64,000 nt of DNA from a virus (IMGVR_UViG_3300011577_000001), one strand, 5' to 3'. Positions 19,714 through 41,230 are shown, numbered from the stretch's first letter. Notes: generated from the sequence alone by a model not told the origin. Made by a program: numbers and translations.

Positions 19714-19805
19714 CCGATTCGCCCCATCTAAAAATTACTCCACATACTCTAAAGACCCCGTGTCAGAATTAACTTATTCTGTGACAACCCCTTAGGAATA
19801 CGACA

Positions 19806-20567
19806 ATGGATGCTACATGCTTCAAGATTGTCTCCATTGGGATAGTGGCAGAGAATAAGTCCATGGTGAACATGGATGGAAGCTGGAACCACGAGGTGGA
19901 CGTCACTCCCATTGAAAGCATGAACATGCTCGACGGTGAGATCAAGTCCAACCCATCCCTGGTGGAGAATAAAGGCGTTGACCGTAAAGGCCAACAGTTC
20001 GGTAGCTCTGTGGCAGTCGACCAAACAGTCAAAGCGACGTGGTTACCTTTTGGCACTAACCGAGTGACTTCTCCTGACGTGCGTCGGGGTGAGCGTGTAT
20101 ACCTCTGGCAGAGCGCTGACGCCGATAAATACTACTGGACTATCGCTGGTCTGGATGATGACAAACGTCGCTTAGAAACGGCTATCTTCGCGTTTAACGG
20201 CAGTCCCACAGAGGGCGGCCTGAACCTGAACAACTGTTACTACTTCGAAGTCTCTACTCACAACAAAACGATCACACTGGAAACCAGTACGGCCAACGGT
20301 GAATCTCATCGGTACACCATCCAGATCAACGCCGCTGAATCGGTCATCACGATTCAAGACGACTCTGGTAACTACTTCCAGTTGGATTCCGATGAACACA
20401 AACTGATTCTTCAGAACCAAGATCAGTCTCACGTGATCCTCAACAAGACCAAGATTGACATCAAGGCCATGGACGAGGTGCACATCGATGTTGGTGCCAC
20501 TCAAGTGACACTGACTCCGGCTGGTACGATCTGGAAAACCCCAACCTTCCAAGGGAGCAGTGGTTAA
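19806..20567 (+). CDS. Baseplate central spike protein (OB fold plus beta-helix)
   Basis: PDVRRGERV gpV/gp5-like motif, C-terminal beta-strand repeats, coupled to a PAAR gene. Confidence 0.7.
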   Translation: MDATCFKIVSIGIVAENKSMVNMDGSWNHEVDVTPIESMNMLDGEIKSNPSLVENKGVDRKGQQFGSSVAVDQTVKATWLPFGTNRVTSPDVRRGERVYLWQSADADKYYWTIAGLDDDKRRLETAIFAFNGSPTEGGLNLNNCYYFEVSTHNKTITLETSTANGESHRYTIQINAAESVITIQDDSGNYFQLDSDEHKLILQNQDQSHVILNKTKIDIKAMDEVHIDVGATQVTLTPAGTIWKTPTFQGSSG

Positions 20568-28021: not shown

Positions 28022-29278
28022 ATGAGCACCATTATCATTAAGTACCCCGAAGATCCAACGGGGTTGAACCCGAACAACCTGGTGATCAACGAACCCCATG
28101 ACTTGGGGGAGGGACGTAACCGGGCCTTCGTACCGAACTACGGTTCTTACTTCACCGAGTCGATGATCGTCACGGAAGCGACGACGGGGCGTGTCCTGAC
28201 CAAGGGTGTGCACTACATCGCGGCTCAACTGCAACAAGACGCCAGTATGGCCATGGGCAAAGAAATTTGTGCTGTGGTCATCATCACTGATCCACTCGTG
28301 CGTGACTCGCTGCTCTTTACCTACCAAGTGGTGGGTGGGGTGTTCAGTACCTCAGTCTCTGCGTTGAAGAAAATGATCGAAGACCTCGATCTGGACGAGC
28401 GGGCTGTTGAGTGGGGTGCCATCATTGGTAAGCCTACTGCGTTCCCACCGGCTCCTCACCTTCATGATATCGGTGACCTCTACGGTTTCGAATACCTCGT
28501 GGAAGCGTTGGATGCCCTGCGTAACGCAATCTTGATCGGCGACGAAGCTGCTCACGATGAACTGCGTCAGTACATCCAGTACGAAGACGGTTTGCTGCGG
28601 GACAGCATCACGGCTTTGGATGGTCGCTTCCAAGCGCACGCTCAAGACCAAGGAAACCCGCACCAAACCACCAAAGCTCAGGTCGGCTTAGGTTCGGTTG
28701 ACAACTACGAAACTGCTTCGCAACCCGAAGCAGAAGCTGGTGCGTTGAACAACCGCTTCATGACGCCTCTGCGTACAGCACAAGCCATCTCCCAACAAGC
28801 GTTGGAGCCACTGAACGCACACAAAGCGGACCATAGCAACCCACACCAAACCACCAAAGCTCAGGTCGGTTTGAGTCTGGTGGACAACTACGCCACAGCA
28901 ACCCAAACGGAAGCTGAGCTGGGTGCCTTGGGAACACGGTTCATGACTCCGTTGCGTACAGCACAGGCGATCACTACTCAAGCGATCATCCCGCTCAACG
29001 CTCACATCAACGACAAGAACAACCCACACCAAACCACCAAAGCTCAGGTCGGTCTTGGTAACTTGCCGAACGCTATTACTGACAGCCGTTCAGAGAACAA
29101 CCCTGACACCGTGTTAAGCGGTAAAGGGATGTACGACCACACCAAGTCCGGTGACCACGATGATCGTTACGTAAGGGTTAACGCAACGGTAAGTGGTAGC
29201 GTGAAGGTCGAGTCTGGAATTGCCTACGTTTATGTGACCAATACGTGGCAGCAGTTCTGGCCTCCTCTGTGGCAGTAA
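28022..29278 (+). CDS. Tail fibre protein
   Basis: YPEDPTG N-terminus, paralogous to 22218; three NPHQTTKAQVGL units at a 183-bp period. Confidence 0.75.
   Translation: MSTIIIKYPEDPTGLNPNNLVINEPHDLGEGRNRAFVPNYGSYFTESMIVTEATTGRVLTKGVHYIAAQLQQDASMAMGKEICAVVIITDPLVRDSLLFTYQVVGGVFSTSVSALKKMIEDLDLDERAVEWGAIIGKPTAFPPAPHLHDIGDLYGFEYLVEALDALRNAILIGDEAAHDELRQYIQYEDGLLRDSITALDGRFQAHAQDQGNPHQTTKAQVGLGSVDNYETASQPEAEAGALNNRFMTPLRTAQAISQQALEPLNAHKADHSNPHQTTKAQVGLSLVDNYATATQTEAELGALGTRFMTPLRTAQAITTQAIIPLNAHINDKNNPHQTTKAQVGLGNLPNAITDSRSENNPDTVLSGKGMYDHTKSGDHDDRYVRVNATVSGSVKVESGIAYVYVTNTWQQFWPPLWQ
28661..29052 (+). repeat. 183-bp-period intragenic repeat
   Basis: CACCAAACCACCAAAGCTCAGGTCGG identical at 28661, 28844 and 29027. 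Confidence 0.85.
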
Positions 29279-29328: not shown

Positions 29329-29835
29329 ATGGTTAAAAGCTTGCAATTTGAGTTAGGTCTGTGTGAAGCTGATTTACACATGGATGCCGTGCTCTCCAGC
29401 CACTATCCGTACGAACAAGGTCAGGTGTGGGTGATTCATCCTTCGGGGTTATCCACCCAAGCCTTGAACGCCATGGACGTAATAAAGTGCGAGGACTGTA
29501 CGATTAAGGTAGAAGGTTACGAGAAGCTCAGTCGTCGTTTGTTTGACGCTGTACAATCAGTTGCCCAAAACCTGAACCACAATGGTCCTGTGACGTGTCA
29601 CCTCTTCCGCTCTCCCAAAGGCGCTGCCAGTTTTCCTGCTCACACTGATCCTGACGACGTGGTGTTGTACATCGTGTCGGGGACCAAGACAATTGAGTTG
29701 GAGGACCGAGTAGCGACTCTGGGTGCGGGAGAGGTCCTTTATTTGCCGCGTGGAACGATCCATAGGGCTGTGAACCATGACGCATCACTGATGCTCAGCA
29801 TCGGTCTTGAACTTTTTACTGTTGAGAAACTATAA
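29329..29835 (+). CDS. JmjC/cupin 2OG-Fe(II) protein hydroxylase (RoxA/NO66-like minimal domain)
   Basis: FPAHTDPDDV (HxD), GTK, GEVLYLPRGTIHRA (distal His). Confidence 0.8.
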   Translation: MVKSLQFELGLCEADLHMDAVLSSHYPYEQGQVWVIHPSGLSTQALNAMDVIKCEDCTIKVEGYEKLSRRLFDAVQSVAQNLNHNGPVTCHLFRSPKGAASFPAHTDPDDVVLYIVSGTKTIELEDRVATLGAGEVLYLPRGTIHRAVNHDASLMLSIGLELFTVEKL

Positions 29836-30876
29836 ATGGCCCACAAAACGATCTACGTTAAAACCACTGGGGCGTGTAACCTCGATTGTAAGCACTGCTT
29901 CACCAACGGTCGAGATGGCGATAAAACGCAGTTTGATCCGGTGGTAGTGGGCGACTGGCTCGAAGACTACATGTCGCGCCATAATCCGAATGACACTTCG
30001 TACCACATGGAGTTCCACGGTGGTGAGCCGTTTCTGGTGCCGCTGGAGAAACTGCAAGTGGTGGCTGATCGTTTCTACGGTCGCCATAACGTGTCTATGT
30101 GTGCCAACAGCAACTTGACGTTTAAGTTGTACCCGGCCCACATCGAGTTCATTAAGAAGTACTTCAACAGTTACATTGGGACCAGTTGGGACCACTGGAT
30201 TCGTTGGAGTAACCAGAAACAATTCGAGTTGTGGAAATCAAACCTTGCGTTGTTGAACTCGCACGGAATTGGTATCAGTTTGAAAGTGTCGGTCTCAAGG
30301 GAACTGATTGCCAGTACGGCAGATTGGTTCATCGACCAGATCGAACAGTTCGGGGTGGACACTGTCGCTTTGGAACGTTTGACCCGAGACGGTAGCGCCG
30401 AAGACAACTCTGCTATCTTCCCGGACAACGAGGAGCAGGACAACTGGTACCTCGCTCTGTACCTGCGCTATAAAGAGCGTAAGCCCAACTTCACCATTCG
30501 GACGCTAGACATCCTTGAGCAGAAGCTTAAGCAAGGTCTGGTGAAAGTAGACACCAACTGCCGCAACTGCGAACAGAACATGGTGACGATGAACTCGAAC
30601 GGTACCCTCGGTTGCTGTCCTAACGTGGCGACCACGCGTGCACACGCTACTCTAGAACAAGGGGTAGACGCATTCTTCAATTCTGATAGCCGTGCCACCG
30701 ACATCGCCGAAGAGCTGACTTGGGGTGACACGTGCCTTACGTGCGACGTGTTCGATTTGTGTGGTGGCGATTGCCATCAACTACCGTGGCAGAAAGGTCG
30801 GTGTGGGGGTTTAAAGAACACCCTGCGGTACCTCTCTGGTCGCAATCTACAGACCAATTTGATATTCAAGGTGTGA
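29836..30876 (+). CDS. Radical SAM/SPASM-domain protein (rSAM-1)
   Basis: CNLDCKHC, FHGGEP, C-terminal CRNC..CCP..CLTCDVFDLCGGDC..C. Confidence 0.92.
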   Translation: MAHKTIYVKTTGACNLDCKHCFTNGRDGDKTQFDPVVVGDWLEDYMSRHNPNDTSYHMEFHGGEPFLVPLEKLQVVADRFYGRHNVSMCANSNLTFKLYPAHIEFIKKYFNSYIGTSWDHWIRWSNQKQFELWKSNLALLNSHGIGISLKVSVSRELIASTADWFIDQIEQFGVDTVALERLTRDGSAEDNSAIFPDNEEQDNWYLALYLRYKERKPNFTIRTLDILEQKLKQGLVKVDTNCRNCEQNMVTMNSNGTLGCCPNVATTRAHATLEQGVDAFFNSDSRATDIAEELTWGDTCLTCDVFDLCGGDCHQLPWQKGRCGGLKNTLRYLSGRNLQTNLIFKV

Positions 30877-30877
30877 T

Positions 30878-31561
30878 ATGGGTAACATTACCAAGGCTGA
30901 CATTGTCGCCGCCGTCAACACCCGCTTCCGCGATAAAGCTAACGCTGGTATCGTTTGGGGTACAAACACGTATCCTGCCTACGGTTTAGCGTCGTGGTTC
31001 AAAGGAACAACCGCTGGAGTGACAGACTCATTCACCGTGGCTGACATTCCAAACGTGAACCCGAAAGCCGCCGAAGTGGTTGCTGCACTGCAAACCTTTG
31101 TGAACAAGTTTGCGTTTGTTCGTAAAGCACGCATCACCATCTACTACTCCACAGACTACGGTCGCTATCTGGAGACTGACAAAACCGCGATTGGTTACAT
31201 GGCTGACAGCGCTGGTGACATTGCTTCGGTAGTGTCGCTACCAGAGATCTCCAAAGACGCTGTGTTGAGTTTGACCAAGTTCAACGACGCCGTGGACCGT
31301 CTGTATGACAACTACGTGGCGCAGTGTCGCAACGTCGCTCTGGAAAAGAGCAGCAGTCACTGTCACACCAGTTGCCACTCGAGCTGTCACTCCAACGTGC
31401 CGGTCTGCCACTCGAGCTGTCACAGTAACGTGCCGGTCTGCCACTCGAGCTGTCACAGTAACGTTGTTTGTCACAGTAGCTGTCATGACAGTTGCCACAG
31501 TAACGTTGTTTGTCACAGTAGCTGTCATGACAGTTGCCACTCCGCCCGTGGTCGTCGTTAA
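30878..31561 (+). CDS. Cys/His-repeat protein, putative substrate of the rSAM/oxygenase cluster
   Basis: ~160-aa N-domain, then 13 C-H-x-[S/N/A] units and terminal RGRR; starts 1 bp after rSAM-1. Confidence 0.8.
   Translation: MGNITKADIVAAVNTRFRDKANAGIVWGTNTYPAYGLASWFKGTTAGVTDSFTVADIPNVNPKAAEVVAALQTFVNKFAFVRKARITIYYSTDYGRYLETDKTAIGYMADSAGDIASVVSLPEISKDAVLSLTKFNDAVDRLYDNYVAQCRNVALEKSSSHCHTSCHSSCHSNVPVCHSSCHSNVPVCHSSCHSNVVCHSSCHDSCHSNVVCHSSCHDSCHSARGRR
31361..31540 (+). repeat. Nested in-frame tandem repeats (33-bp and 42-bp units)
   Basis: Near-identical 33-bp unit at 31373 and 31406, partial at 31439; exact 42-bp duplication 31454-31495 / 31496-31537. Confidence 0.9.
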
Positions 31562-31575
31562 TTCGGAGTATCCCC

Positions 31576-32307
31576 GTGGAAACCATTTACACTACCGCCC
31601 CGATCTCGCTACCTGACCTCAAACGTAAGTTCACCGAAGACGTTGAGTTCGTCATCGACTACGACAACAGCAAGTTCAAAGGAAAGATCCTGATTACCTA
31701 CCTCAGTAACTTGGACATCAAGTGCAAGCTGGAGATCAAGGACCCTGACCAAGCACTGGCCTTGCTGGAAGAGTACCTGAACATCCCGACGCTGGTGAGT
31801 GTGTTCGACCTGGAAGACTTGGCGATCAACGTATTGCTCGAGTACCAAGGTAAACCGAACAAGCTCAACATTGAAGTAGGCGACTTCATCGAGCGCAACA
31901 AAACCGCGCTGGAGCGTTGGGTACGTCGGGTTAACTCGCTGTTGTTGTACACCTTGTACATCAACGATCAGTTCCGTCCGATGGTTGAGGAGTTCCCCCA
32001 AGACCTCGATGACGGGGTAGTGGGAATCAACTTCGTACACCTGATCAAACACGAACTGTTCCCGGTGTTGCTGGAGAACATTCAACCGTCGTTGATTACG
32101 TGGAACAAAACGTTCTTCAACGACTACGTGTTCGCCGGTAACAACCTGTTCACCTACTTCGCAGTGAAAGAGAACCCGCTGTTCTTGGGTCTGTTGTGCG
32201 GTCTGGACGGTCAACGAAGCGAACTATCCATCATCCCGTCGATGGAGACGGTCGAACAAGCCTGCGTAACACGCATCAAGGAGATCGCTCATGTTTCATC
32301 TGTTTAA
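31576..32307 (+). CDS. Hypothetical protein of the rSAM cluster
   Basis: GGAG RBS then GTG at 31576; overlaps the next gene. Confidence 0.75.
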   Translation: METIYTTAPISLPDLKRKFTEDVEFVIDYDNSKFKGKILITYLSNLDIKCKLEIKDPDQALALLEEYLNIPTLVSVFDLEDLAINVLLEYQGKPNKLNIEVGDFIERNKTALERWVRRVNSLLLYTLYINDQFRPMVEEFPQDLDDGVVGINFVHLIKHELFPVLLENIQPSLITWNKTFFNDYVFAGNNLFTYFAVKENPLFLGLLCGLDGQRSELSIIPSMETVEQACVTRIKEIAHVSSV

Positions 32308-33346
32308 CTCAGTCTACGTTGATACCGAACGTCGACTGGATCGCCGGTACGATCACATCACGATCTCCCCTACGATCGGTTACGAGTACGTCCACTTCGA
32401 CAAGTATGACAAGATCGGTCAGCAACTGTGGTACTCCACCACGCTCGACCACCTGGACCCGACCACGTTTGAGTACGTGTTCAACCAAGCGTTGCTGTCG
32501 GACAAGAAAACCTTCGTCTACTGCGACAACGAAACCTACCTGCGTCTGTACGGCATGTTGGTTAAAGCGGTGTTCCCAAGCGTCGATCTGGAAACCTTCC
32601 GCTGGATTCTGCTCTGTAAGAAAGCCACGTTTAACACCACGCTGACCAAGTACGGTGTGACAGACAACAACGCTTTCACCGGGGTGGACATCAACACAGC
32701 GGTCATCGACAAACTGTTTGCGTACAAAGACGCTAACCAGAAAGCGATGGAGAAAGTGGTTCGTGCTAATCCAGAAGCGCTGTCGCTGGAATGGCGTGTG
32801 GCTCGTCTGGTAGCGACTGGCGAAGTCGGTTCACTGCCGAAGACCCTACTGAACATCCTGCGTCGCATTGCGTTGGCCAACACTCACGATGTACTCGACG
32901 TTTGGGGTCGGATGATCACTGACCCGGCTAACTGGGACTACGCAGGCTGCGACATGCAAACCCTACTCGACGCCCCAACCGTGTTCCAAGGAGCGGTAGG
33001 TTTCAACTTCACCAACAACCCGGTGTTCTTGAAGCCTGGTCTGTTTGAACTCAAACCGTCGGAGTCGTGGATCTTCGGTCTGCTGGAAGAGATGATCCCA
33101 TTACTCGAACACTGCGATGAAGGCCCAACTGCTGGGCGTAGTCGTCTGGTGTTGGAACTGCTGCGTAACGGTGGTGACTGGGAAGATCCAGAGAACTGCC
33201 TGAAGAACGTCCACACGATGTTCCGGGGTCCGAAGCGTCTGGCACTACCAAACCGCGACACCGGTAAGTACGACGAAAACCTGCTCCGCTATCTGCTGGG
33301 TCGTGACCCCAGCGAACTGCACGAGTGTTTCCAAGAGAAAGATTAA
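32291..33346 (+). CDS. Hypothetical protein of the rSAM cluster
   Basis: AAGGAG RBS, 351 aa, abuts rSAM-2. Confidence 0.8.
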   Translation: MFHLFNSVYVDTERRLDRRYDHITISPTIGYEYVHFDKYDKIGQQLWYSTTLDHLDPTTFEYVFNQALLSDKKTFVYCDNETYLRLYGMLVKAVFPSVDLETFRWILLCKKATFNTTLTKYGVTDNNAFTGVDINTAVIDKLFAYKDANQKAMEKVVRANPEALSLEWRVARLVATGEVGSLPKTLLNILRRIALANTHDVLDVWGRMITDPANWDYAGCDMQTLLDAPTVFQGAVGFNFTNNPVFLKPGLFELKPSESWIFGLLEEMIPLLEHCDEGPTAGRSRLVLELLRNGGDWEDPENCLKNVHTMFRGPKRLALPNRDTGKYDENLLRYLLGRDPSELHECFQEKD

Positions 33347-34354
33347 ATGAACCTGATACCGCTAGTTGACATCCTCGAAGAGAAGAAAGGGAACACCAAA
33401 GAGGCACACTTGATTTTCTTTGAGAAGTGTAACTTGCGGTGTTCGTTCTGTCACCAAGACCACGATTCCGAAGTGGGACTGTCTGCGGACGAGATCCTTG
33501 AAAAGGTCAATACCCTGATCGAGGTGAGCGACCCTGAAGTCCCAATCGTGATCAACCTCACCGGTGGGGAGTTGTTCTCGGACAATATCCCTGACTGGAT
33601 GTTCGGCTACTACTTGATGGCGGGACAGTTGTTGCTCCGTCATTTTAAGCGAGCGAAGTTGGTCTGGGGGACGAACTTGGTTTACAGCGATCTCTTCCGC
33701 GTGATGCGGTTGATGACGATGCTCAAGGCTGAGGCATCCAAAGACCAGAACGTGTGTCTGGCAACGTCCTACGATCCAGCAGGGCGTTTCACTGCGGGTA
33801 ACCGGGATCTGTTTCTGCGCAGTCTCATGGTGGTTAAGCCCTACGTAGAAACAGTGAACGTGGTGATCACTCGCCAGAACATCCAACTGTTCCTGACAGG
33901 TAATGAAGGCAAAGAGTTTGAGTGGTTGTGTAGCAACTTCGACGTGTACTTTGACCACTACATTCCCTCGGAGCGGTACGAAGAGCACCAGCCTACAGAG
34001 TCGGCTATCAGTCAGCTCTATCTGACGCTCGACAAGAAGTATCCCAACTCCTACCCCATCAAAGCATGGAAGGAGAATCGGTTCAATGACACGACCTGTC
34101 GCTCCACGAAGATCATCAACAAGGATGGTGTCGTGACGACGTGTTGGTCAGAAGCCGGTAAAGATGCCATCCTCGATGAAGGGGCTGGTCTGAAGGCTAA
34201 GCACGAGGCGGAAGAACGCTTCTTAAACCACTATGGTTGTTTGGCCTGTGAGTACTATCAACGGTGTGGCTTGCGGTGTTTCTTGCACCACAGCTTCGTT
34301 GAGACGGACTCTAAGGAATGCCAAATCAAAGTGATGTTTGACCAAATCCTGTAG
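33347..34354 (+). CDS. Radical SAM protein with C-terminal Cys cluster (rSAM-2)
   Basis: CNLRCSFC, LTGGELF, CLACEYYQRCGLRC..C. Confidence 0.9.
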   Translation: MNLIPLVDILEEKKGNTKEAHLIFFEKCNLRCSFCHQDHDSEVGLSADEILEKVNTLIEVSDPEVPIVINLTGGELFSDNIPDWMFGYYLMAGQLLLRHFKRAKLVWGTNLVYSDLFRVMRLMTMLKAEASKDQNVCLATSYDPAGRFTAGNRDLFLRSLMVVKPYVETVNVVITRQNIQLFLTGNEGKEFEWLCSNFDVYFDHYIPSERYEEHQPTESAISQLYLTLDKKYPNSYPIKAWKENRFNDTTCRSTKIINKDGVVTTCWSEAGKDAILDEGAGLKAKHEAEERFLNHYGCLACEYYQRCGLRCFLHHSFVETDSKECQIKVMFDQIL

Positions 34355-34375
34355 CCTCGTATTAAGGACACTCCC

Positions 34376-35464
34376 GTGGATCTGATTATCAAACCAACCG
34401 TGAAGTGTAACTTCAAGTGCACCTTCTGCTCCAGTACCCACCTTTCGGAAGACCCGAAGGAGATTGTGGAACTGGAAGCGATCGAGCGGTTCATCAAACG
34501 TTTTCCAGAAACCCGTACGCTGATCATCAACGGTGGCGATCCACTGATGATGCCTCCTAGCTACTACTGGAAGATCATCGAGATCTTGGACCGACTGGGG
34601 TCTGAGGCGTGCATCTCGTTTACCACTAACCTCTGGGCGTTCTACAAGAAGCCTGAGATGTGGGTGGAGTTGTTCCGACATCCTCGTGTGGGTGTGGGGA
34701 CGTCTTTCCAGTACGGCAATGCTCGCTTGAAAGGCGACGGTACACCATTCACAGAAGAAGAGTTCTTGAAGATCTCGGACATGATGTTGGAGATGGTCGG
34801 TCATCGTCCAGACTTCATCAGCGTGATCGACGAAGAGAACGTTCACACCGTGCTCGATACCGTGCGACTGGCTAAGCGTCTGGGACTGGTGGCTAAGATC
34901 AACTATGTCAGTGCCTCTGGACCTGAAGTGGTGAACCGTGGTGTGACTATGGGTAGCTGGAACCGCATGTACACCCAAGCGGACATCTACGAGAAATACA
35001 TCGAGATCTACGATGCAGGTTTGGGTGAGTGGGAATATAACACGCAGCAAATGACCAAGCGTCTGCGCAACGGTCAGACTACGTGTCCGCTGTCCCGGAC
35101 GTGCGACAGTGGTATCCGTGCGTTGCAGCCGGGTGAGAACTACTACTCCTGTGGTAGCTTCGGGGACGACGGGGAATACCCGATCGACTTCGACCGTGAA
35201 ATGAAAGGTGAATTCTTCACACCTTTGCAGAACCAGATCGAACTGCACTCGATGAAAGAGAGTTGCAATATCTGCCCGATGTTTATCATCTGTAATGGCT
35301 GCAAGAAAACCATTGCGGACACCAAACGTCTGGGTCAGGTTGAACGTCACTGTAAGAAGATGAAGTCACTGGCACCACGCATCATTGAAATCAATGGCAT
35401 GACGGGCGTTCTCGAACCTACACCGTACGAAGACGAATCGTTGCCCCTGATCGCTAAGGGATAA
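34376..35464 (+). CDS. Radical SAM/SPASM-domain protein (rSAM-3)
   Basis: IKPTVKCNFKCTFC, NGGDPL, CPLSRTC..C..CNICPMFIICNGC..HC. Confidence 0.92.
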   Translation: MDLIIKPTVKCNFKCTFCSSTHLSEDPKEIVELEAIERFIKRFPETRTLIINGGDPLMMPPSYYWKIIEILDRLGSEACISFTTNLWAFYKKPEMWVELFRHPRVGVGTSFQYGNARLKGDGTPFTEEEFLKISDMMLEMVGHRPDFISVIDEENVHTVLDTVRLAKRLGLVAKINYVSASGPEVVNRGVTMGSWNRMYTQADIYEKYIEIYDAGLGEWEYNTQQMTKRLRNGQTTCPLSRTCDSGIRALQPGENYYSCGSFGDDGEYPIDFDREMKGEFFTPLQNQIELHSMKESCNICPMFIICNGCKKTIADTKRLGQVERHCKKMKSLAPRIIEINGMTGVLEPTPYEDESLPLIAKG

Positions 35465-35469
35465 CTTGT

Positions 35470-36417
35470 ATGAAACCCCCTCTTAATCTTTCGATCAACT
35501 GCTGGTACTATTGTAACTTCAGTTGTTCGTTCTGTTACCTCACCCCGGAGCAGTTGAATGATCGACAACTCTTGCCTCTGGAGGTGTTGGAGCAGCGTGT
35601 GGACGAGGTGATGACGCAGTATCGCATCAACCACGTTGACATCTATGGAGGGGAAGTTCTACTCTTGCCACCTGAGTACCTACAAGCGGTGAAGGGGATC
35701 TTCCATGCTCGTGGGGTGGACGACATCGTGTTGGTGACAAACCTCTCGGTGGTGAATGAAGCAGCACTGGATGAAGACTTCGAACTGTCGGTGTCATATG
35801 ACGGCTTGGCACGTGAGAAGTCAGAACTGGTGTTCACCAACATGTTGATGCTTACGCGACAGTTCACAATCCTCTCGCTCTGTGGGCGGGAGTTTCTGGA
35901 CAAGGTCTCAGTCGATGACTACGTACAAACGTTGAACCTGCTGGGTCACCTGAAATGCGTGGAGATCAAACCGTACAGCTCCAACCAAGCCAACAACCAT
36001 CCCGTGACCAATCGGGAGTTCGAGGAGTTTGTGTGGGCGGTGCTGTCTCACCCGGAACGTAACTTCTACATGGAGAACGAAACCCTGATCAAACAAGCGG
36101 TCGCAGGGATTCGTAATTCATTCAGCGATGACCACATCTACATCACCCCGAGTGGGGAATTTGCGGTGCTGGAGTTCGACCAAGCTGAGCGGGAGTACTT
36201 CCTGCCGGTGGACGGATTGGCTGGCTACCAAGCATGGTGTGAAGCTGAGAAGCAACGGGTGACTACCAACCCATTCTGTGCCAGTTGTGAATTTCTAGGC
36301 ACGTGTCTATCAGAACACTTACGCGACGTGAAATCCATGGACAACTCGTGTAACGGGTTTAAGGGATTGTTGTTGCGGTGGGAGGAAGAATGTTCGTCCG
36401 GCATCGGCAACGACTAG
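35470..36417 (+). CDS. Radical SAM protein with C-terminal Cys cluster (rSAM-4)
   Basis: CNFSCSFC, YGGEVL, VTNLS, CASCEFLGTCLSEH..SCNG. Confidence 0.9.
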   Translation: MKPPLNLSINCWYYCNFSCSFCYLTPEQLNDRQLLPLEVLEQRVDEVMTQYRINHVDIYGGEVLLLPPEYLQAVKGIFHARGVDDIVLVTNLSVVNEAALDEDFELSVSYDGLAREKSELVFTNMLMLTRQFTILSLCGREFLDKVSVDDYVQTLNLLGHLKCVEIKPYSSNQANNHPVTNREFEEFVWAVLSHPERNFYMENETLIKQAVAGIRNSFSDDHIYITPSGEFAVLEFDQAEREYFLPVDGLAGYQAWCEAEKQRVTTNPFCASCEFLGTCLSEHLRDVKSMDNSCNGFKGLLLRWEEECSSGIGND

Positions 36418-37418
36418 AGATCACACTCGATCTGTTTCGAGGTTGTGGTCATCATTGTGCAGGGTGTATGATCGACAAGTCGCTGGGTGGGGACATCTCT
36501 GACATCCCTGACCTGTTGGCGTTGATTAGAGAAATGACTGCGGCAGGGTACGTGGCGTTCGACTTAGGTGTTGGACCTACGGACTACATGACATCAACCA
36601 ACACGCAAGAGGTGATGACGAACACCACTTTCCGTGAGATGGCGCAGTTGTTTCATCAGGTGACGTTTAACGCTGCGTTCTTAGACACTCGCATGGAGAA
36701 CTACGGTGCCATGTGTGTGGACATTGATGTAGCGTGTCCTGATAAACCCATTCGTTTTCTAATTCCGGCTGTACCGTCTCATTTCAAGAATGAGAAGTTC
36801 GGCTTAATGATAAAAGAGAAACTGGAGTACATCCAAGAACACTTGGTGGTGGCCCGTTTGAATGAGGCAGGGTTTGTTGTGACCTGTACTCGAGAAACTG
36901 TAGATGAACGTTTTGAAGAATACTTGGCCAACGGGTTTGAGATTGAATTCCCTGTGGACAAAGATGACATCCTCAACATCCCGTATGGTCGAGCGCCTAA
37001 CCGAGATCTCATGGTCGCGCAGAACGTGCGACGGGTGTCCCACCGGATCAGTTCCTTTTATGCGGGGCTCAGCGGTGAAGACGAAAGAAGACGTAATCCT
37101 GACTTGCATTACGACACTGGTACGATGGTCAATCTGCTATATACTGGTGGCAAGCTTTATTGGGTACCGTTCTTAAAGGACGACTGTCCGTTCCTTGACG
37201 ACGACTTCGTGATCCAGCGCCCCTGGACTATGGAGAACTTACTAACGGTCCGTAACGAGGCTCGTGAGCGCTCTATGGACTACTTAGCCGACACTGGGTG
37301 CATGGCGTGTCCACACTTGAGCAGTTGCATGGAAAAGGGCATCACCAACATCATGCAAAAGCTCTCCATCAAAGATTGTTTAGTAGGACTTGAGCATGAT
37401 TCCGACGCGCATTGCTAA
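36390..37418 (+). CDS. Divergent radical SAM-like protein (rSAM-5)
   Basis: CGHHCAGC (Cx3Cx2C); GPTD in place of GGEP; CMACPHLSSC..C. Confidence 0.7.
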   Translation: MFVRHRQRLEITLDLFRGCGHHCAGCMIDKSLGGDISDIPDLLALIREMTAAGYVAFDLGVGPTDYMTSTNTQEVMTNTTFREMAQLFHQVTFNAAFLDTRMENYGAMCVDIDVACPDKPIRFLIPAVPSHFKNEKFGLMIKEKLEYIQEHLVVARLNEAGFVVTCTRETVDERFEEYLANGFEIEFPVDKDDILNIPYGRAPNRDLMVAQNVRRVSHRISSFYAGLSGEDERRRNPDLHYDTGTMVNLLYTGGKLYWVPFLKDDCPFLDDDFVIQRPWTMENLLTVRNEARERSMDYLADTGCMACPHLSSCMEKGITNIMQKLSIKDCLVGLEHDSDAHC

Positions 37419-38436
37419 ATCACTGAACCTCACCCTGGAAGTTCTCAAAGGGTGTGGTTACAGTTGTCCCGGCTGTACGGTGGAGAAAGACTCAGCCCCG
37501 GTGAACATCTCTGACGCTGACGCGACAGCACTGGTGACGATGGCTGAAGACTTGATCGAGAATGACTTCCGCTTGCTGGAGTTTCGATTGGGTCCGACAG
37601 ACATCACCAGCTCGTCCAATTGGCGAGACGTGTTAGCCCATCCATTGATTCACGGGTTGGCTCAGCACTACCGTGCACTCAACGTGTCATTGACCATGCT
37701 CAGTGATCGAGGACTGGAAGAGTTGGCAGCCGACATAGACCCCTTGATGGCGGGAAAGAAACTCAGTGTCTCAATCCCGATGGCGTTAAAGCAAACCTCG
37801 AATCAAAAATACCTCGGGGAGTTACGTAAGCGTATTCTGTACTTTAAGAGTCTGTTTAAGGAAACCGACTTTAACCGCGTTTATGCAAACTTCAACTTGA
37901 TTGATGACAACATCACTCATTTAAACGAAGGGACGTACCAAGCAGCCCACACATTAGACTTGGGCGTCCCTGTCTTCTCGGAGTTCCCGTTTCCACACAC
38001 CCGTAAAGGGATGGGGAACCTGTTGGTACTCAACCAACTGAACCGCGACTTGTACACCTTCTCAGAGTTTCTCAAGGCCCAAGTGAACACGAAGATCTAC
38101 CGCCCGTTGATCCCGAACGTGGTGGATGGCTTTGAGTTTGTCTACCGCAGCGGTGTGTTGTATCACGCCCCAGTGGTGTCAGAGAACCTCCCGATCTTTG
38201 AGTCAGGCTTTGAACTCGCCCGACCATGGAATGCAGAGTCAGTGTTAGGGTTTCGGGAGCAGGGTTACTACGAAGACTTAGTGGCGCTAGCTGAGCATCC
38301 TGAGTGTGGTAGTTGCTGTTTCTTGGACTACTGTTCTCGTGGGTCAGTGAAGCCTTTGATGGACTTGCTAGGGCGTGCAGATTGCCTAACGGGTTTGCGT
38401 AACCGTTGGGACCTCCAACTACACCGACAGGATTAA
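37396..38436 (+). CDS. Divergent radical SAM-like protein (rSAM-6), paralog of rSAM-5
   Basis: CGYSCPGC; GPTD; CGSCCFLDYC..C. Confidence 0.7.
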   Translation: MIPTRIAKSLNLTLEVLKGCGYSCPGCTVEKDSAPVNISDADATALVTMAEDLIENDFRLLEFRLGPTDITSSSNWRDVLAHPLIHGLAQHYRALNVSLTMLSDRGLEELAADIDPLMAGKKLSVSIPMALKQTSNQKYLGELRKRILYFKSLFKETDFNRVYANFNLIDDNITHLNEGTYQAAHTLDLGVPVFSEFPFPHTRKGMGNLLVLNQLNRDLYTFSEFLKAQVNTKIYRPLIPNVVDGFEFVYRSGVLYHAPVVSENLPIFESGFELARPWNAESVLGFREQGYYEDLVALAEHPECGSCCFLDYCSRGSVKPLMDLLGRADCLTGLRNRWDLQLHRQD

Positions 38437-38440
38437 CAAC

Positions 38441-38914
38441 GTGGATATAGTGATCATAGACGACGTCGAGTTCAGCGACGAGTTGATGGCGATCTGCATG
38501 TGTCAACAGAACAAAGCGTACGTGGATGAACCGGAGATCAGTGCTTTCATTGATGCGGTGATTCTACCCCACGTTAAGCGTCACGCCAATGCACACCCGG
38601 ACATCTATGCACAGGCGTCTCACGTACACATCAGTGACCTCGGGCTGGAACCACACACCCACGAACCGTACTCATTGGTGGCGGTGTTGTACTTCTTCGA
38701 CTCACAAGGCGAACTGGTCATTACCGATGGCTCACATCCGAACATACAGCCCCGTAGAGGCCGTTTGGTGTTGATGGGCGGGACTACATCGCATTACGTC
38801 ATTCCGTCAACTGGGCGTGAACTCAGGATGTCGCTGGTGACGAACTTCCACCACGAACAAGTGCAACCGTTTCCTGAAACCAAAGAGGTCTCGGGGAAAA
38901 TCGCGTACACCTAA
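38441..38914 (+). CDS. 2OG-Fe(II) oxygenase superfamily protein
   Basis: PHTH, AVLYF, PRRGRLVLM, SHYV, RMSL (RxS 2OG-binding motif). Confidence 0.75.
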   Translation: MDIVIIDDVEFSDELMAICMCQQNKAYVDEPEISAFIDAVILPHVKRHANAHPDIYAQASHVHISDLGLEPHTHEPYSLVAVLYFFDSQGELVITDGSHPNIQPRRGRLVLMGGTTSHYVIPSTGRELRMSLVTNFHHEQVQPFPETKEVSGKIAYT

Positions 38915-38924
38915 GGATACCCGT

Positions 38925-39482
38925 ATGGATTACTTGGCACCGTGGCCAACCGTGATTGGTGTCACGAACATTGCTGGTCAGATTGACTTGGACTGTTTGT
39001 CCGATGAAGTCTTTAACCTGAACCTGTTGACCAAAGGTGAAGACGCCAGTCAACAGTGGGTAACCCACGAAGCGGTTCCGTTGATCATGCAGTTGCGTGA
39101 CGAGATCATCAACCCGCTGGTGGAACAGTACTCGCTGGAGCAATGGGAATACCCGTTGTCAGGCTACCGGGTGGAAACCAACGCAAAGTGGATTCCAGAA
39201 GGTGAAGGACTGTATCCCCATCTACATCCGGGCAGTAACCTTTCGGCGATCATCTACCCGAAAGACTCACCGTCGGGTATCACGTTGTTTGACCCTCGGA
39301 TGAACGCCTCCCGTGGCTACCCCAAACCGATTCGTCGGGGCTACATGAAACCGGTCACGATCTCACCCAAAGCCGGTGACGTTCTGATCATCCCAAGCTA
39401 CATCCAACACAGTGTCTCTTATGTGAAAGAGGAAGTGCGGTTGTCACTGCTCTTTGAGTATTACTTCGCAGGAGAGGTCTGA
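38925..39482 (+). CDS. 2OG-Fe(II) oxygenase superfamily protein
   Basis: PHLHPGSNLSAIIY, DPR, PKAGDVLIIPSYIQHSV, RLSL. Confidence 0.85.
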   Translation: MDYLAPWPTVIGVTNIAGQIDLDCLSDEVFNLNLLTKGEDASQQWVTHEAVPLIMQLRDEIINPLVEQYSLEQWEYPLSGYRVETNAKWIPEGEGLYPHLHPGSNLSAIIYPKDSPSGITLFDPRMNASRGYPKPIRRGYMKPVTISPKAGDVLIIPSYIQHSVSYVKEEVRLSLLFEYYFAGEV

Positions 39483-39919
39483 TGGCAGAACCCGAATACA
39501 AACAGTACCAACGACTGTACAACCAGTTGGTCACTGAACACACGGACGACTTCAGTTTAATGGAGTACGTCGAATCTCCTGAGATTGTGCAGAACGCTTT
39601 ACACTACTTCAAAGGGCAGTTCTTCCCGTTGATCTATCCGGCGAAGTCCTACGCTGTGGCAGTGATCTACGCGTACCTTATCTTCAAAGAGTATGGGATT
39701 CCAATCCGCGACACCTTGATGGACGACGACCTGTTCTTGGGTCAGGACGAGTACTTCGTTCCTTACTACAAAGACTCGGCGTCTTACGAACAGATCTTGG
39801 CTGCGCTGGATTACATGCCGAACTGGATCACGCTTGGTTGGGCTCCGAAAACGGCAGAGTACTTCCGACTGGAGTGCACGGCGGCGGGGATCGAAGAAGT
39901 CATGAACAACCTTACCTGA
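39482..39919 (+). CDS. Hypothetical protein of the rSAM cluster
   Basis: TGATG coupling; 145 aa, Tyr-rich and acidic. Confidence 0.75.
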   Translation: MAEPEYKQYQRLYNQLVTEHTDDFSLMEYVESPEIVQNALHYFKGQFFPLIYPAKSYAVAVIYAYLIFKEYGIPIRDTLMDDDLFLGQDEYFVPYYKDSASYEQILAALDYMPNWITLGWAPKTAEYFRLECTAAGIEEVMNNLT

Positions 39920-39929
39920 GTACCTACCC

Positions 39930-40484
39930 ATGGAACTGATTCAACCTTGGAACACGTCGATCCTCAAAGCGAACGTGACCCACTTGGTCAACGTCGAAGC
40001 CATTGCGGCTGAGATCCTGACCCTTCACAGCTTGTCTCCTCAAGAGTCTCGGACAGCGTACAAAGTGACGCCGGAAGAGTTCCCCAAACTGTGCGACTTC
40101 CGTGACCGCGTGGTAACTGGTCTGGTGAAAGAGTACCTCAAGCAAACCATGAACTTCACCCTGACCGAGTTCACCGTCGATACGTTCGGTAAGTGGTTTG
40201 TCAAAGGTTCTGACCTTGCACCCCACACCCACGGCAACAGTGGCATCACCAGTATCTTCTATCCAGAAGACTACGAGTCAGGGATGAGCATCTTTGACCC
40301 GCGCGGTAATGCTTCGCGTGGCTACCCTCGAGCGATTCGTGACGAGCACTTTGCTCCGTACCACGTCTTCCCAAAGGCGGGTGACCTATACATCTTCCCG
40401 GCGTTCTTACAACACTACGTTCCAACCGTCAAAGATGACCTGCGTCTGTCGTTGATCAACGACTTCATGTTCGTTGGGATCTAA
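39930..40484 (+). CDS. 2OG-Fe(II) oxygenase superfamily protein, paralog of 38925
   Basis: PHTHGNSGITSIFY, DPRGNASRGYP, PKAGDLYIFPAFLQHYV, RLSL. Confidence 0.85.
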   Translation: MELIQPWNTSILKANVTHLVNVEAIAAEILTLHSLSPQESRTAYKVTPEEFPKLCDFRDRVVTGLVKEYLKQTMNFTLTEFTVDTFGKWFVKGSDLAPHTHGNSGITSIFYPEDYESGMSIFDPRGNASRGYPRAIRDEHFAPYHVFPKAGDLYIFPAFLQHYVPTVKDDLRLSLINDFMFVGI

Positions 40485-40486
40485 AG

Positions 40487-40514
40487 AGGAGGGCTTCGGC
40501 CCTCCTTTATGCCG
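40487..40514 (+). terminator. Hairpin closing the rSAM/oxygenase operon
   Basis: AGGAGGGC-TTCG-GCCCTCCT-TTATGCCG. Confidence 0.8.
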
Positions 40515-40540: not shown

Positions 40541-41230
40541 ATGGGGACTATTATGTACCAGGTAACCGATCGTAGTGCGATCAAGAAGACGCAACAGAAG
40601 CTTAAGGACCTCGGCTTCTATGAAGGTAAAGTAGACGGGATTTGGGGTCCCCTGTCACAAGCGGCTTTAGAAGCCTCGCGAGGTGAGAAAGTGGTTAGCC
40701 CTACCTTCGACACTACCCGGATTATCTGGGGTAAGAAAGTGTCCAAAGAGTTCATCCTGAAAGTACGTATGATCGCCCAGAAGCTGTTGATGCCTTCCGA
40801 AGGCTCCAACTGGCTGATGGCGTGCATGGCTTTCGAAACGGGTGAGACGTTCTCCCCGACCATCAAGAATGGTGCTGGTGCTCCGTACTACGGTTTGATC
40901 CAGTTCGGTGACGCTGCTGCCAAAGACGCCGGTACTACCGTTCCTGCGTTGCTCAAGATGACCGCCGAGGAACAGCTTGACTACGTGTACAACTTCTTCA
41001 AGCCGTACGCGGGCAAACTGAATACCCTGAGCGATTGCTACATGAGAATACTCTGGCCTGCCGCTGTCGGCAAACCAGAAGACTTTGTAGTGTTCGATCA
41101 GAAAGTGCGTCCAACGGCGTACGTTCAGAACAAAGGTCTGGACATCAACAAAGACGGTAAAGTCACCAAGGCTGAATGTGCAGCCAAGGTCCAACAGAAA
41201 TACGAACGTGGGCAGCAGTTCATCCTTTAA
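40541..41230 (+). CDS. Modular endolysin (peptidoglycan-binding domain plus lysozyme/SLT-like domain)
   Basis: QQKLKDLGFY.GKVDGIWGPLSQAAL; MAFETG..GLIQF catalytic region; start 40541 or 40553. Confidence 0.85.
   Translation: MGTIMYQVTDRSAIKKTQQKLKDLGFYEGKVDGIWGPLSQAALEASRGEKVVSPTFDTTRIIWGKKVSKEFILKVRMIAQKLLMPSEGSNWLMACMAFETGETFSPTIKNGAGAPYYGLIQFGDAAAKDAGTTVPALLKMTAEEQLDYVYNFFKPYAGKLNTLSDCYMRILWPAAVGKPEDFVVFDQKVRPTAYVQNKGLDINKDGKVTKAECAAKVQQKYERGQQFIL

Follow-up and report, generated by a model that had tools for sequence, protein, structure and literature searches.

What does a jumbo phage do with six putative radical SAM enzymes and several putative iron oxygenases packed beside a single protein that ends in a Cys-His repeat? 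This question was raised by positions 29329–40484 of a 64,000-nucleotide stretch of viral DNA (hereafter the window), for which a preliminary description had proposed an operon similar to those producing RiPPs, with six radical SAM proteins, four 2OG-Fe(II) oxygenases and a Cys/His-repeat substrate. The re-analysis confirmed the observation itself, while the interpretation placed on it was supported only in part. The locus is one copy of a widespread cassette that most likely modifies the repeat tail of a virion-associated protein, although the chemistry is inferred and no modification has been observed for any member. No paper describing the cassette was found. What is new in this phage is the recent tandem expansion of the tail.

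Gene content of the cassette

A total of 14 ORFs (g1 to g14) were located on the forward strand between 29329 and 40484, with junctions ranging from a 40-nt overlap to a 21-nt gap. The operon is closed by an intrinsic-terminator-like hairpin at 40485–40513 (+), directly after the last stop codon, which consisted of a 10-bp GC-rich stem, a UUCG loop and a U-rich tail in both the MFE and centroid folds. Upstream of the cassette, two tail-fibre-like virion structural genes (25051–28002 and 28022–29278, +) could be annotated using PHROGs (phrog_11065 virion structural protein at 2.3e-146; phrog_2163 at 1.1e-123, plus tail and tail-fibre families). Downstream, 40541–41230 (+) encodes a protein like the C-terminal part of a baseplate hub (phrog_4928 at 2e-68; phrog_196, baseplate hub, at 1.6e-44).

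Six proteins carry the Cx3Cx2C motif of the SAM-binding [4Fe-4S] cluster, and orthologue alignments revealed that all three Cys are conserved at 95–100% in every one of the six orthologue groups, together with conserved C-terminal Cys clusters. The first of them, g2 (29836–30876, +; 346 aa), lies directly upstream of the tailed protein in nearly all loci, and its C14, C18 and C21 and 8 C-terminal Cys, including Cx2Cx5Cx3C, are invariant in 60 orthologues. The SPASM-type g6 (33347–34354, +; 335 aa) has 7 conserved C-terminal Cys. The SPASM-type g7 (34376–35464, +; 362 aa), with 8, is the best conserved gene of the cassette, showing 51–76% identity across 80 IMG/VR loci. The Cx2Cx5Cx3C spacing is shared by g2 and g6 and reads Cx2Cx5Cx2C in g7, whereas g8 (35470–36417, +; 315 aa) has one auxiliary cluster of four conserved Cys (C270, C273, C279 and C294). 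A paralogous pair of divergent radical-SAM-like proteins, g9 (36378–37418) and g10 (37390–38436; both +), also has 4 conserved C-terminal Cys each; their start codons are uncertain and they are lineage-specific, being found in 28 of the 80 loci.

Profile searches supported these assignments unevenly. Pfam Radical_SAM (PF04055; gathering score 29.5 bits) was passed by g7 (48.8 bits) and g8 (34.7), while g2 (23.9) and g6 (22.3) were significant but below the cut-off. No Pfam or NCBIfam hit was obtained for g9 and g10, and in hhalign they aligned to the others, including the g7 family, only over the Cx3Cx2C region (probability 81%, 40 columns), although their homologues are annotated as radical SAM in pPa_SNUABM_DT01. 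The SPASM profile TIGR04085 scored 23.6 bits for g2 and 15.8 bits for g6 against a cut-off of 27.

Among the putative oxygenases, g1 (29329–29835, +; 168 aa) is a small cupin/JmjC-type protein matching PF07883 (44.6 bits, cut-off 27.2) and PF08007 (43.3 bits, cut-off 22), with H105, D107 and H145 conserved in 48 orthologues; it was found in 53 of the fetched loci. The paralogues g12 (38925–39482, +; 185 aa) and g14 (39930–40484, +; 184 aa) match PF13759 at 41.5 and 34.8 bits (cut-off 27). A conserved HxH...H was observed in both (H99, H101 and H162 in g12) and in g11 (38441–38914, +; 157 aa; H72, H74 and H118), a small DSBH-like protein that reached only 22.1 bits for PF13640 (cut-off 27) and 19.2 bits for PF13759. 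The PF13759 family of putative 2OG-Fe(II) oxygenases is itself uncharacterised, and the structures nearest to g12 are the uncharacterised 2rg4 and 3bvc. The earlier count of six radical SAM proteins and four 2OG oxygenases is therefore generous, as two of the former and one of the latter rest mainly on motifs.

The remaining enzyme-neighbouring genes, g4, g5 and g13, have no Pfam or NCBIfam family and are cassette-specific. The 243-aa g4 (31576–32307, +) most likely starts at GTG 31576, 14 nt after g3, matches phrog_20767 of unknown function, gave no PDB sequence hit and lies directly downstream of g3 in most of the 67 loci that have it. The 351-aa g5 (32291–33346, +) belongs to a very divergent family; its AF2 model (pLDDT 91) gave only weak, generic fold matches with Z up to 7.3, and 611 representatives of 50%-identity clusters at E<=1e-3 were all about 350–390 aa long, with no fusions among the best 150. 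The small, strongly conserved g13 (39482–39919, +; 145 aa) matches phrog_20737, also of unknown function, with a mean column identity of 46% and 10 invariant residues; no significant PDB sequence hit was obtained, the single match (1db3) having an E value of 0.58.

The tailed protein and its distribution

The 227-aa protein encoded by g3 (30878–31561, +) consists of a confidently folded N-terminal domain (residues 1–165), of no known fold, and a disordered C-terminal tail. The tail (31361–31558, +) contains exactly 13 Cys-His tetrads with S, N or A at the fourth position, arranged in blocks of 3, 2, 2, 3 and 3 separated by VPV, VPV, VV and VV linkers and followed by RGRR and the stop. No other CHxxCH motif occurs in any frame of the window. 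Tandem Repeats Finder revealed recent in-frame duplications inside the tail (31373–31540, +), namely a 33-bp unit repeated 2.8 times (94% matches) and a 42-bp unit repeated 2.1 times (100% matches).

The cassette is not unique to this phage. It recurs in 80 fetched IMG/VR loci found through g7, in cultured jumbo phages (pPa_SNUABM_DT01, RSF1/RSL2/FLC6, Atu_ph07 and Phosso) and in a Bdellovibrionaceae MAG, and it sits between tail-fibre and baseplate genes here and elsewhere. The order g1 g2 g3 g4 g5 g6 g7 g8 ... g13 is nearly fixed, while a minimal form keeps only g2 g3 g4 g5 g5' g7. All 65 loci with at least 5.1 kb of upstream DNA encode a g3-family protein; a usual lack of any Cys/His-repeat gene in homologous clusters had been set beforehand as a condition that would refute the preliminary reading, and it was not observed. 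The usual tail is (CHxS)x3 plus RGRR. Although the N-domains share only 24–46% identity, the C, H and R positions of the tail are invariant across 58 distinct tail sequences, in which both Cys codons, both His codons, both Ser codon boxes and both Arg boxes are used, and Ser fills the fourth position in 54 of 58 tails. The tail is the constrained part of the protein, conserved at the amino-acid level with free synonymous change. In expanded tails (P0007), single CHxN tetrads stand alone between linkers, which points to the tetrad as the functional unit.

Further, the Atu_ph07 homologue gp170 (31.89 kDa, tail CHSSCHASCHNSRSRR) was identified in purified virions with 8 unique peptides and 35% coverage, and was most abundant in the top gel band. 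The gel buffer as described contains no reductant, and the high-mass migration could therefore be due to disulfides. The neighbouring cassette proteins gp165–169, gp171 and gp172, including the g4 homologue gp169, are absent from the virion list. This evidence comes from one distant homologue only.

Proposed function and competing readings

The explanation favoured here, with moderate confidence, is that the cassette matures a virion-associated protein after translation and that g3 is its target. In this view, the radical SAM/SPASM-type enzymes (core set g2, g6, g7 and g8; lineage-specific g9 and g10) would act on the tetrads, probably one at a time, abstracting a hydrogen and forming a new covalent bond within or between tetrads; a Cys thioether or a His-Ser type modification like the one reported for HxsA are candidates. 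The cupin/JmjC protein g1 and the HxH...H proteins g11, g12 and g14 would add oxidative tailoring, with g4, g5 and g13 as cassette-specific helpers. The product would not be cleaved off, and the whole protein would be built into the particle, probably in the tail-fibre or baseplate region, next to whose genes the cassette always lies. In this lineage, in-frame tandem duplication has raised the tetrad number from 3 to 13 without any change in the enzyme set. The gene content, its conservation and co-occurrence, the protein-level selection on the tail and the virion presence of one homologue are established by the data, whereas the identity of the tail as the substrate, the chemistry (including the crosslinking and hydroxylation proposed in the preliminary description) and the place of the protein in the particle are inferred.

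The preliminary description was supported in treating the genes as one unit and the Cys/His-repeat protein as its best candidate substrate. The RiPP-like reading was not supported in the sense of a leader that is removed and a peptide that is released. A multi-core precursor is resembled by the several tetrad blocks and by the radical SAM/SPASM gene next to the precursor, and the N-domain would then be a large leader and the tail a released bioactive peptide, for example an antimicrobial or a metallophore. However, no protease, exporter or transporter domain was found in the 14 genes by Pfam, NCBIfam and PHROGs searches, the N-domain is a well-folded 165-residue domain, the homologue is present as a protein in virions, and the position among tail genes also argues against it. 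A classical RiPP is thus considered very unlikely.

A second possibility is that g3 is not a substrate but a metal or Fe-S carrying accessory or structural protein, whose tail supplies the ten iron enzymes or stabilises a virion tip, while the enzymes modify something else, such as the tail-fibre proteins encoded upstream. Cys/His motifs also bind metals without any modification, only the C and H positions of the tetrad are strictly invariant while the third varies freely, and a flexible tail of 3 Cys plus 3 His resembles metallochaperone tails; more tetrads would simply mean more sites, and the cassette lies behind fibre genes. However, Ser or Asn at the fourth position and the RGRR end are conserved across both Ser codon boxes, which pure metal binding would not require. 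The cassette enzymes are absent from Atu_ph07 virions while gp170 is present, so g3 is not merely an enzyme cofactor, and CHxS tetrads also occur inside an Hxs-type substrate. This reading is regarded as unlikely, but as the strongest of the alternatives.

The enzymes may also produce a small molecule, cofactor or nucleotide modification, with g3, g4 and g5 being unrelated structural genes that travel with them. Weak hits of g8 and g7 to viperin and MoaA, two DHFR-like genes inside the Chiangmaivirus copies, which could hint at small-molecule chemistry, and Trp-halogenase-like and B12-radical SAM genes in some marine copies are in line with this. However, the viperin and MoaA hits cover only the generic N-terminal cluster region, and no sugar, nucleotide or carrier-protein genes belong to the conserved core. 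Moreover, g3 stays within the cassette, directly after g2 in nearly all loci, across lineages whose g7 identity falls to 51%, which is hard to explain by hitch-hiking. This alternative is also very unlikely. The occurrence of O2-dependent oxygenases and O2-sensitive radical SAM enzymes in one pathway remains unexplained under the favoured model.

Comparison with known systems

The enzymes look like protein modifiers, as g2, g6 and g7 have conserved SPASM-like Cys sets and their best, though weak, hits are anSME, PapB, AmcB, YhhB, DynA, CteB and ChlB; however, the radical SAM enzymes pass no curated peptide-maturase threshold. In the thioether and cyclophane RiPP maturases (SCIFF/CteB, ranthipeptide PapB, triceptide AmcB/YhhB/FxsB and the CXXX-repeat maturase TIGR04115), repeated short Cys- or aromatic-x-x motifs are modified iteratively by a SPASM enzyme encoded next to the substrate. 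The phage enzymes gave weak hits to all of these families, with g2 matching ChlB and CteB in the PDB at E about 4e-3, but every score was far below cut-off (TIGR04115, 18.5 bits for g2 against 350). In the phage cassette there is no leader cleavage, protease or exporter, and the candidate substrate is a 180–300 aa virion protein.

Among protein-modifying SPASM enzymes, anSME (Cys/Ser to formylglycine in sulfatases) and QhpD (thioether crosslinks in QhpC) act on Cys-containing motifs of a protein that stays intact. The best NCBIfam hit for g2 and g7 was anSME, with 45–48 bits against a cut-off of 349, and it was also the nearest solved structure to g7 (E 5e-4); no sulfatase or QhpA/B/C context is present.

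The closest known system is the bacterial HXS antiphage system (Li et al., Nat Commun 2026, PMC13128918), a characterised system in which the radical SAM enzymes HxsB and HxsC, accompanied by HxsD, mature the His-x-Ser repeat protein HxsA; the earlier statement that no characterised system of this kind was known thus needs updating. The phage enzymes are not HxsB (TIGR03978; best score 20.1 bits for g2, cut-off 370) or HxsC (TIGR03977; 25.8 bits for g7, cut-off 267.9). Pfam and NCBIfam searches found no HxsD-like gene and no peptidoglycan-binding domain, such as the exported effector of the HXS system carries, among g3, g4, g5 and g13, and g3 gave no domain match at all, including no HxsA hit. 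Every phage tetrad contains H-x-S/N/A, but each unit carries a Cys and the repeat period is 4 instead of 3. The cassette further adds oxygenases and three unknown proteins, is encoded by a phage, and its protein, judging from the Atu_ph07 homologue, goes into virions. In both cases, however, several radical SAM enzymes (in the phage, partly by motif alone) are encoded next to a protein, and not a short peptide, that carries tandem units, His-x-Ser in HxsA and, in the phage, tetrads that only partly resemble them. In E. coli HXS, the modification (+8 Da) maps to an SHRSS motif whose His and both flanking Ser are essential (PMC13128918), and an archaeal contig (L094) encodes, directly after an HxsC-like radical SAM gene (TIGR03977, 1.4e-62), a protein in which (HSS)n runs into 12 CHxS tetrads like those of the phage.

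Gene content and predicted enzymes of the cassette

The cassette consisted of fourteen ORFs on the + strand, running from 29329 to 40484, with junctions between a 40-nt overlap and a 21-nt gap. A 10-bp GC-rich hairpin with a UUCG loop and a U-rich tail followed the last stop codon at 40485-40513. The arrangement described in the preliminary description therefore held. The region is part of a 240,392-bp IMG/VR virus record, in which two tail-fibre-like virion genes lie upstream of the cassette and a protein like part of a baseplate hub lies downstream.

The fourteen genes are referred to here as g1 to g14 in the order of transcription. Among the six radical SAM candidates, g7 and g8 passed the Pfam Radical_SAM profile, g2 and g6 were significant but below the gathering score, while g9 and g10 had no family hit. 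Orthologue alignments from 80 related loci revealed that all six keep the Cx3Cx2C motif together with a C-terminal Cys set, consisting of 8, 7 and 8 Cys in g2, g6 and g7, respectively, with a Cx2Cx5Cx3C-type motif, and 4 Cys in each of g8, g9 and g10. However, g9 and g10 could be aligned to the others only over the cluster motif, so their assignment rests on motifs. The best NCBIfam and PDB hits of g2 and g7 were protein- or peptide-modifying SPASM enzymes, namely anSME, PapB, AmcB, YhhB, DynA, CteB, and ChlB, all of which were far below the family cut-offs. The g1 product is a cupin/JmjC protein with an invariant HxD...H triad, while g12 and g14 belong to the uncharacterised family PF13759. 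Together with the weaker g11, these two (window 38441-40484) keep an invariant HxH...H motif of three His instead of the usual HxD/E...H, which can also be seen in the unnamed structures 2rg4 and 3bvc. Three-His iron sites occur in thiol dioxygenases, and such a site, inferred here from the motif alone, would fit a Cys-rich substrate.

For g4, g5, and g13, Pfam and NCBIfam searches found nothing, and PHROGs returned only families of unknown function for g4 and g13. Profile searches against PDB sequences were empty apart from one non-significant hit for g13, and protein-atlas feature searches for g4 and g5 gave nothing usable. Complex prediction of g4 with g3 returned no answer (score 0.00), which carries no weight either way. 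The g5 family (32291-33346) has an almost invariant extreme N-terminus (M1, L4, Y9) and one invariant Glu (E167), although overall identity is only 10-20% outside the clade of the window. The structural model of g5 was confident, but it matched only a weak dual-specificity phosphatase (DUSP)-like fold in the N-domain (Z 5-5.7, with no conserved CX5R Cys, the catalytic residue) and a generic helical bundle; thus, the phosphatase reading was rejected.

The tailed protein and its linkage to the predicted enzymes

The protein encoded by g3 (30878-31561, 227 aa) has no family. AlphaFold2 prediction on a 53-sequence alignment produced a confident alpha/beta domain for residues 1-165 (pLDDT mostly above 90) followed by a disordered tail. 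No fold could be assigned to this domain, as Foldseek against PDB gave nothing at E<=1e-3, VIA-align against 48,161 chains gave a best Z of 4.0, the ESM Atlas gave TM <= 0.28, and BFVD returned only uncharacterised phage homologues. The tail contains 13 Cys-His-x-Ser/Asn/Ala tetrads, which form blocks of 3, 2, 2, 3 and 3 separated by short Val/Pro linkers and are followed by RGRR and the stop codon. At the DNA level, a 33-bp unit repeated 2.8 times with 94% matches and a 42-bp unit repeated 2.1 times with 100% matches could be observed; the expansion is therefore recent. Close relatives (P0004-P0007 and L017) have 11, 13, 13, 14 and 15 tetrads, and in one of them single CHxN tetrads stand alone between linkers, so that the tetrad looks like the functional unit.

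A search of 5.8 billion proteins found 54 homologues of g3, nearly all of 172-205 aa, which end in [VI]-CH[SA]S-CHxx-CHxx-R[GS]RR, with one CY variant in the third tetrad. The same tail ends the homologues in Ralstonia phage RSF1, Burkholderia phage FLC6, Pseudomonas phage pPa_SNUABM_DT01 (DT01), and Agrobacterium phage Atu_ph07. Across 58 distinct tail sequences the C, H and R residues are invariant, while both Cys codons, both His codons, both Ser codon boxes, and both Arg boxes are used, and Ser fills the fourth tetrad position in 54 of 58. Selection is therefore on the protein, and the idea that the conserved tail reflects a DNA or RNA element was rejected because synonymous codons vary freely. 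In contrast, the N-domains share only 24-46% identity outside the window's own clade.

A scan of IMG/VR with g7 returned 80 loci at 51-76% identity. All 65 loci with at least 5.1 kb upstream of g7 encode a g3-family protein, whereas the 15 without one all have less upstream DNA. The preliminary description had proposed in advance that its reading would fail if homologous enzyme clusters usually lacked the repeat gene; they do not lack it. The order g1 g2 g3 g4 g5 g6 g7 g8 (g9 g10) g13 plus oxygenases is nearly fixed. One clade (loci L081-L091) keeps only g2 g3 g4 g5 g5' g7, and its tail ends CHSNCHGSCHGS[I/L] without RGRR, which suggests that g2 and g7 with g4 and g5 are the functional core. 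A link between loss of RGRR and loss of g1, g6, g8, and g13 was seen in this clade only, while loci L072 and L073 lack g1 but keep RNRR. As these are too few independent events, no co-variation argument is drawn from this single lineage.

The cassette is common. The g5 family alone has 611 representatives of 50%-identity clusters at E<=1e-3 and 484 at E<=1e-10, with no fusions among the best 150. Among cultured phages the cassette occurs only in jumbo phages, namely DT01, the Chiangmaivirus group, Atu_ph07, and Phosso. A full cassette in a different gene order, with tail ACHASCHSSCHGARGRR, is also present on a 77,874-bp contig of the Bdellovibrionaceae MAG UBA2316 (L093), where an AMP-binding enzyme gene lies upstream and no phage gene was recognised in the 16 kb examined; the cassette may thus also exist outside phages. 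A 4268-bp contig of the Dysosmobacter segnis BX15 assembly (L092, NZ_JACOQI010000054.1) encodes the end of g3 (95% identical to residues 115-227 of the window's g3) followed by homologues of g4, g5, g6, and g7. This is probably contamination of the assembly by a near relative of this phage and should not be read as a host clue without checking.

Several copies carry additional genes. In the Chiangmaivirus group (RSF1, FLC6, SURPRISE13) two DHFR-like genes are inserted between the g6 and g7 homologues (L001:8572-9861, L002:8674-9887, L010:8355-9532), and RSF1 also has an HNH endonuclease there. Marine copies carry three Trp-halogenase-like flavoenzymes and extra oxygenases, and another lineage carries a B12-binding radical SAM protein (L004:3310-6448 and 19334-20558; L006:14563-16164), which are lineage-specific extra tailoring genes. 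The DHFR-like, halogenase-like, and B12-radical SAM genes may hint at small-molecule or nucleotide chemistry, although this alternative is considered very unlikely. In another copy, two IS605 OrfB/TnpB-like genes (Cas12f-like TNB domain) are inserted inside the cassette (L008:15825-17018 and 19141-20358).

Presence of a homologue in virions and the proposed maturation

The proteome reported for Atu_ph07 (PMC6102473, Supplementary Table S5) lists gp170 as a 31.89-kDa hypothetical protein, which could be confirmed as the g3 homologue by its computed mass of 31.894 kDa. It appears among the proteins of purified virions with 8 unique peptides and 35% coverage in gel bands 1-9, while the neighbouring cassette proteins gp165-169, 171 and 172 are not listed. 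Thus, the N-domain is not a discarded leader, and the enzymes are not structural. A classical RiPP, in which the peptide is released, is accordingly regarded as very unlikely, and while the interpretation of the preliminary description was partly supported, its term RiPP-like was not supported in this sense. The gp170 protein was most abundant in band 1, where most of the other proteins peaking there are 75-139 kDa. This anomalous migration fits a covalent link; however, the sample buffer as described has no reductant, so disulfides through the tail Cys could explain it as well.

The explanation favoured here, with moderate confidence, is that the radical SAM enzymes modify the tetrads of g3, the oxygenases tailor the product, and the intact protein is built into the particle near the fibres or baseplate. 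The modification could be a thioether from the Cys, a His-Ser type change as in HxsA, or an intermolecular link. Alternatively, the tail may be an unmodified metal site or Fe-S carrier while the enzymes act elsewhere, which is considered unlikely. While the gene content, the linkage, and the conservation of the tail were observed directly, nothing about the chemistry is shown, and the claim remains an inference from comparative genomics plus one proteome.

If the tail is modified, phages spend 8-11 kb and up to ten iron enzymes on finishing one particle protein, a kind of virion maturation which is not covered by what is known, namely proteolysis, autocatalytic crosslinks, and glycosylation. 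The cassette occurs in cultivable phages of Pseudomonas, Ralstonia, Burkholderia, Agrobacterium, and Sinorhizobium, so the question is directly testable. What this window adds is the recently expanded, multi-block tail served by an unchanged enzyme set, and the 3-to-13 tetrad expansion in this lineage gives a natural dose series for the modification, if it occurs.

Comparison with known systems

Literature searches on jumbo phages with radical SAM enzymes and oxygenases, on phage RiPPs, and on the tail motif found no description of the cassette. The genome papers for FLC6, SURPRISE13, and DT01 only list the annotations, and the jumbo-phage survey of Iyer et al. does not mention radical SAM. 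The related Ralstonia jumbo phages RP12 and RP31 (PhiRP12 and PhiRP31; PMC5468394, supplementary tables) carry a different cluster, not this cassette, behind YomR-like fibre genes, which consists of a 537-aa radical SAM protein, an anSME-like protein, a MoaA-like protein, and an MgoB-like protein. Radical SAM clusters behind fibre genes may be a more general theme.

The tetrad can be read as a His-x-Ser unit with a Cys spacer. An archaeal MAG contig found in the genome scan (L094:6382-8728, CAZGDN010000013.1) encodes a 487-aa protein in which a run of HSS/HGS repeats continues into 12 CHxS tetrads. It lies directly after an HxsC-like radical SAM gene (TIGR03977, E 1.4e-62, 211 bits, just under the cut-off of 268), and two more HxsC-like genes and an ACGX/SbtM-like SPASM gene lie nearby. 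The HXS system has just been characterised (PMC13128918); in this system HxsB and HxsC mature HxsA, a +8 Da change maps to an SHRSS motif whose His and both flanking Ser are essential, and the effector blocks phage DNA entry. If the phage tail is modified, the newly opened field of radical-SAM-matured His-x-Ser proteins would be broadened from bacterial defence to the phage side. A further reading, which is not excluded but is considered unlikely, is that the cassette installs a so far undescribed covalent modification (a crosslink or a protein-derived metal site) on a structural protein of the virus particle, which would be the first radical-SAM-matured virion component. This His-x-Ser-type protein would act at the cell envelope during adsorption or DNA delivery, and would be the viral mirror image, or an antagonist, of the bacterial HxsA effector.

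Membership of the CXXX-repeat, triceptide, SCIFF, and ranthipeptide maturase families fails on score. The HXS system is the closest known system in how it works; however, the phage cassette is not a member of it, as its enzymes score 20-26 bits against cut-offs of 268-370 and no HxsD or peptidoglycan-binding domain was found among its proteins, and it adds four oxygenases and three unknown proteins.
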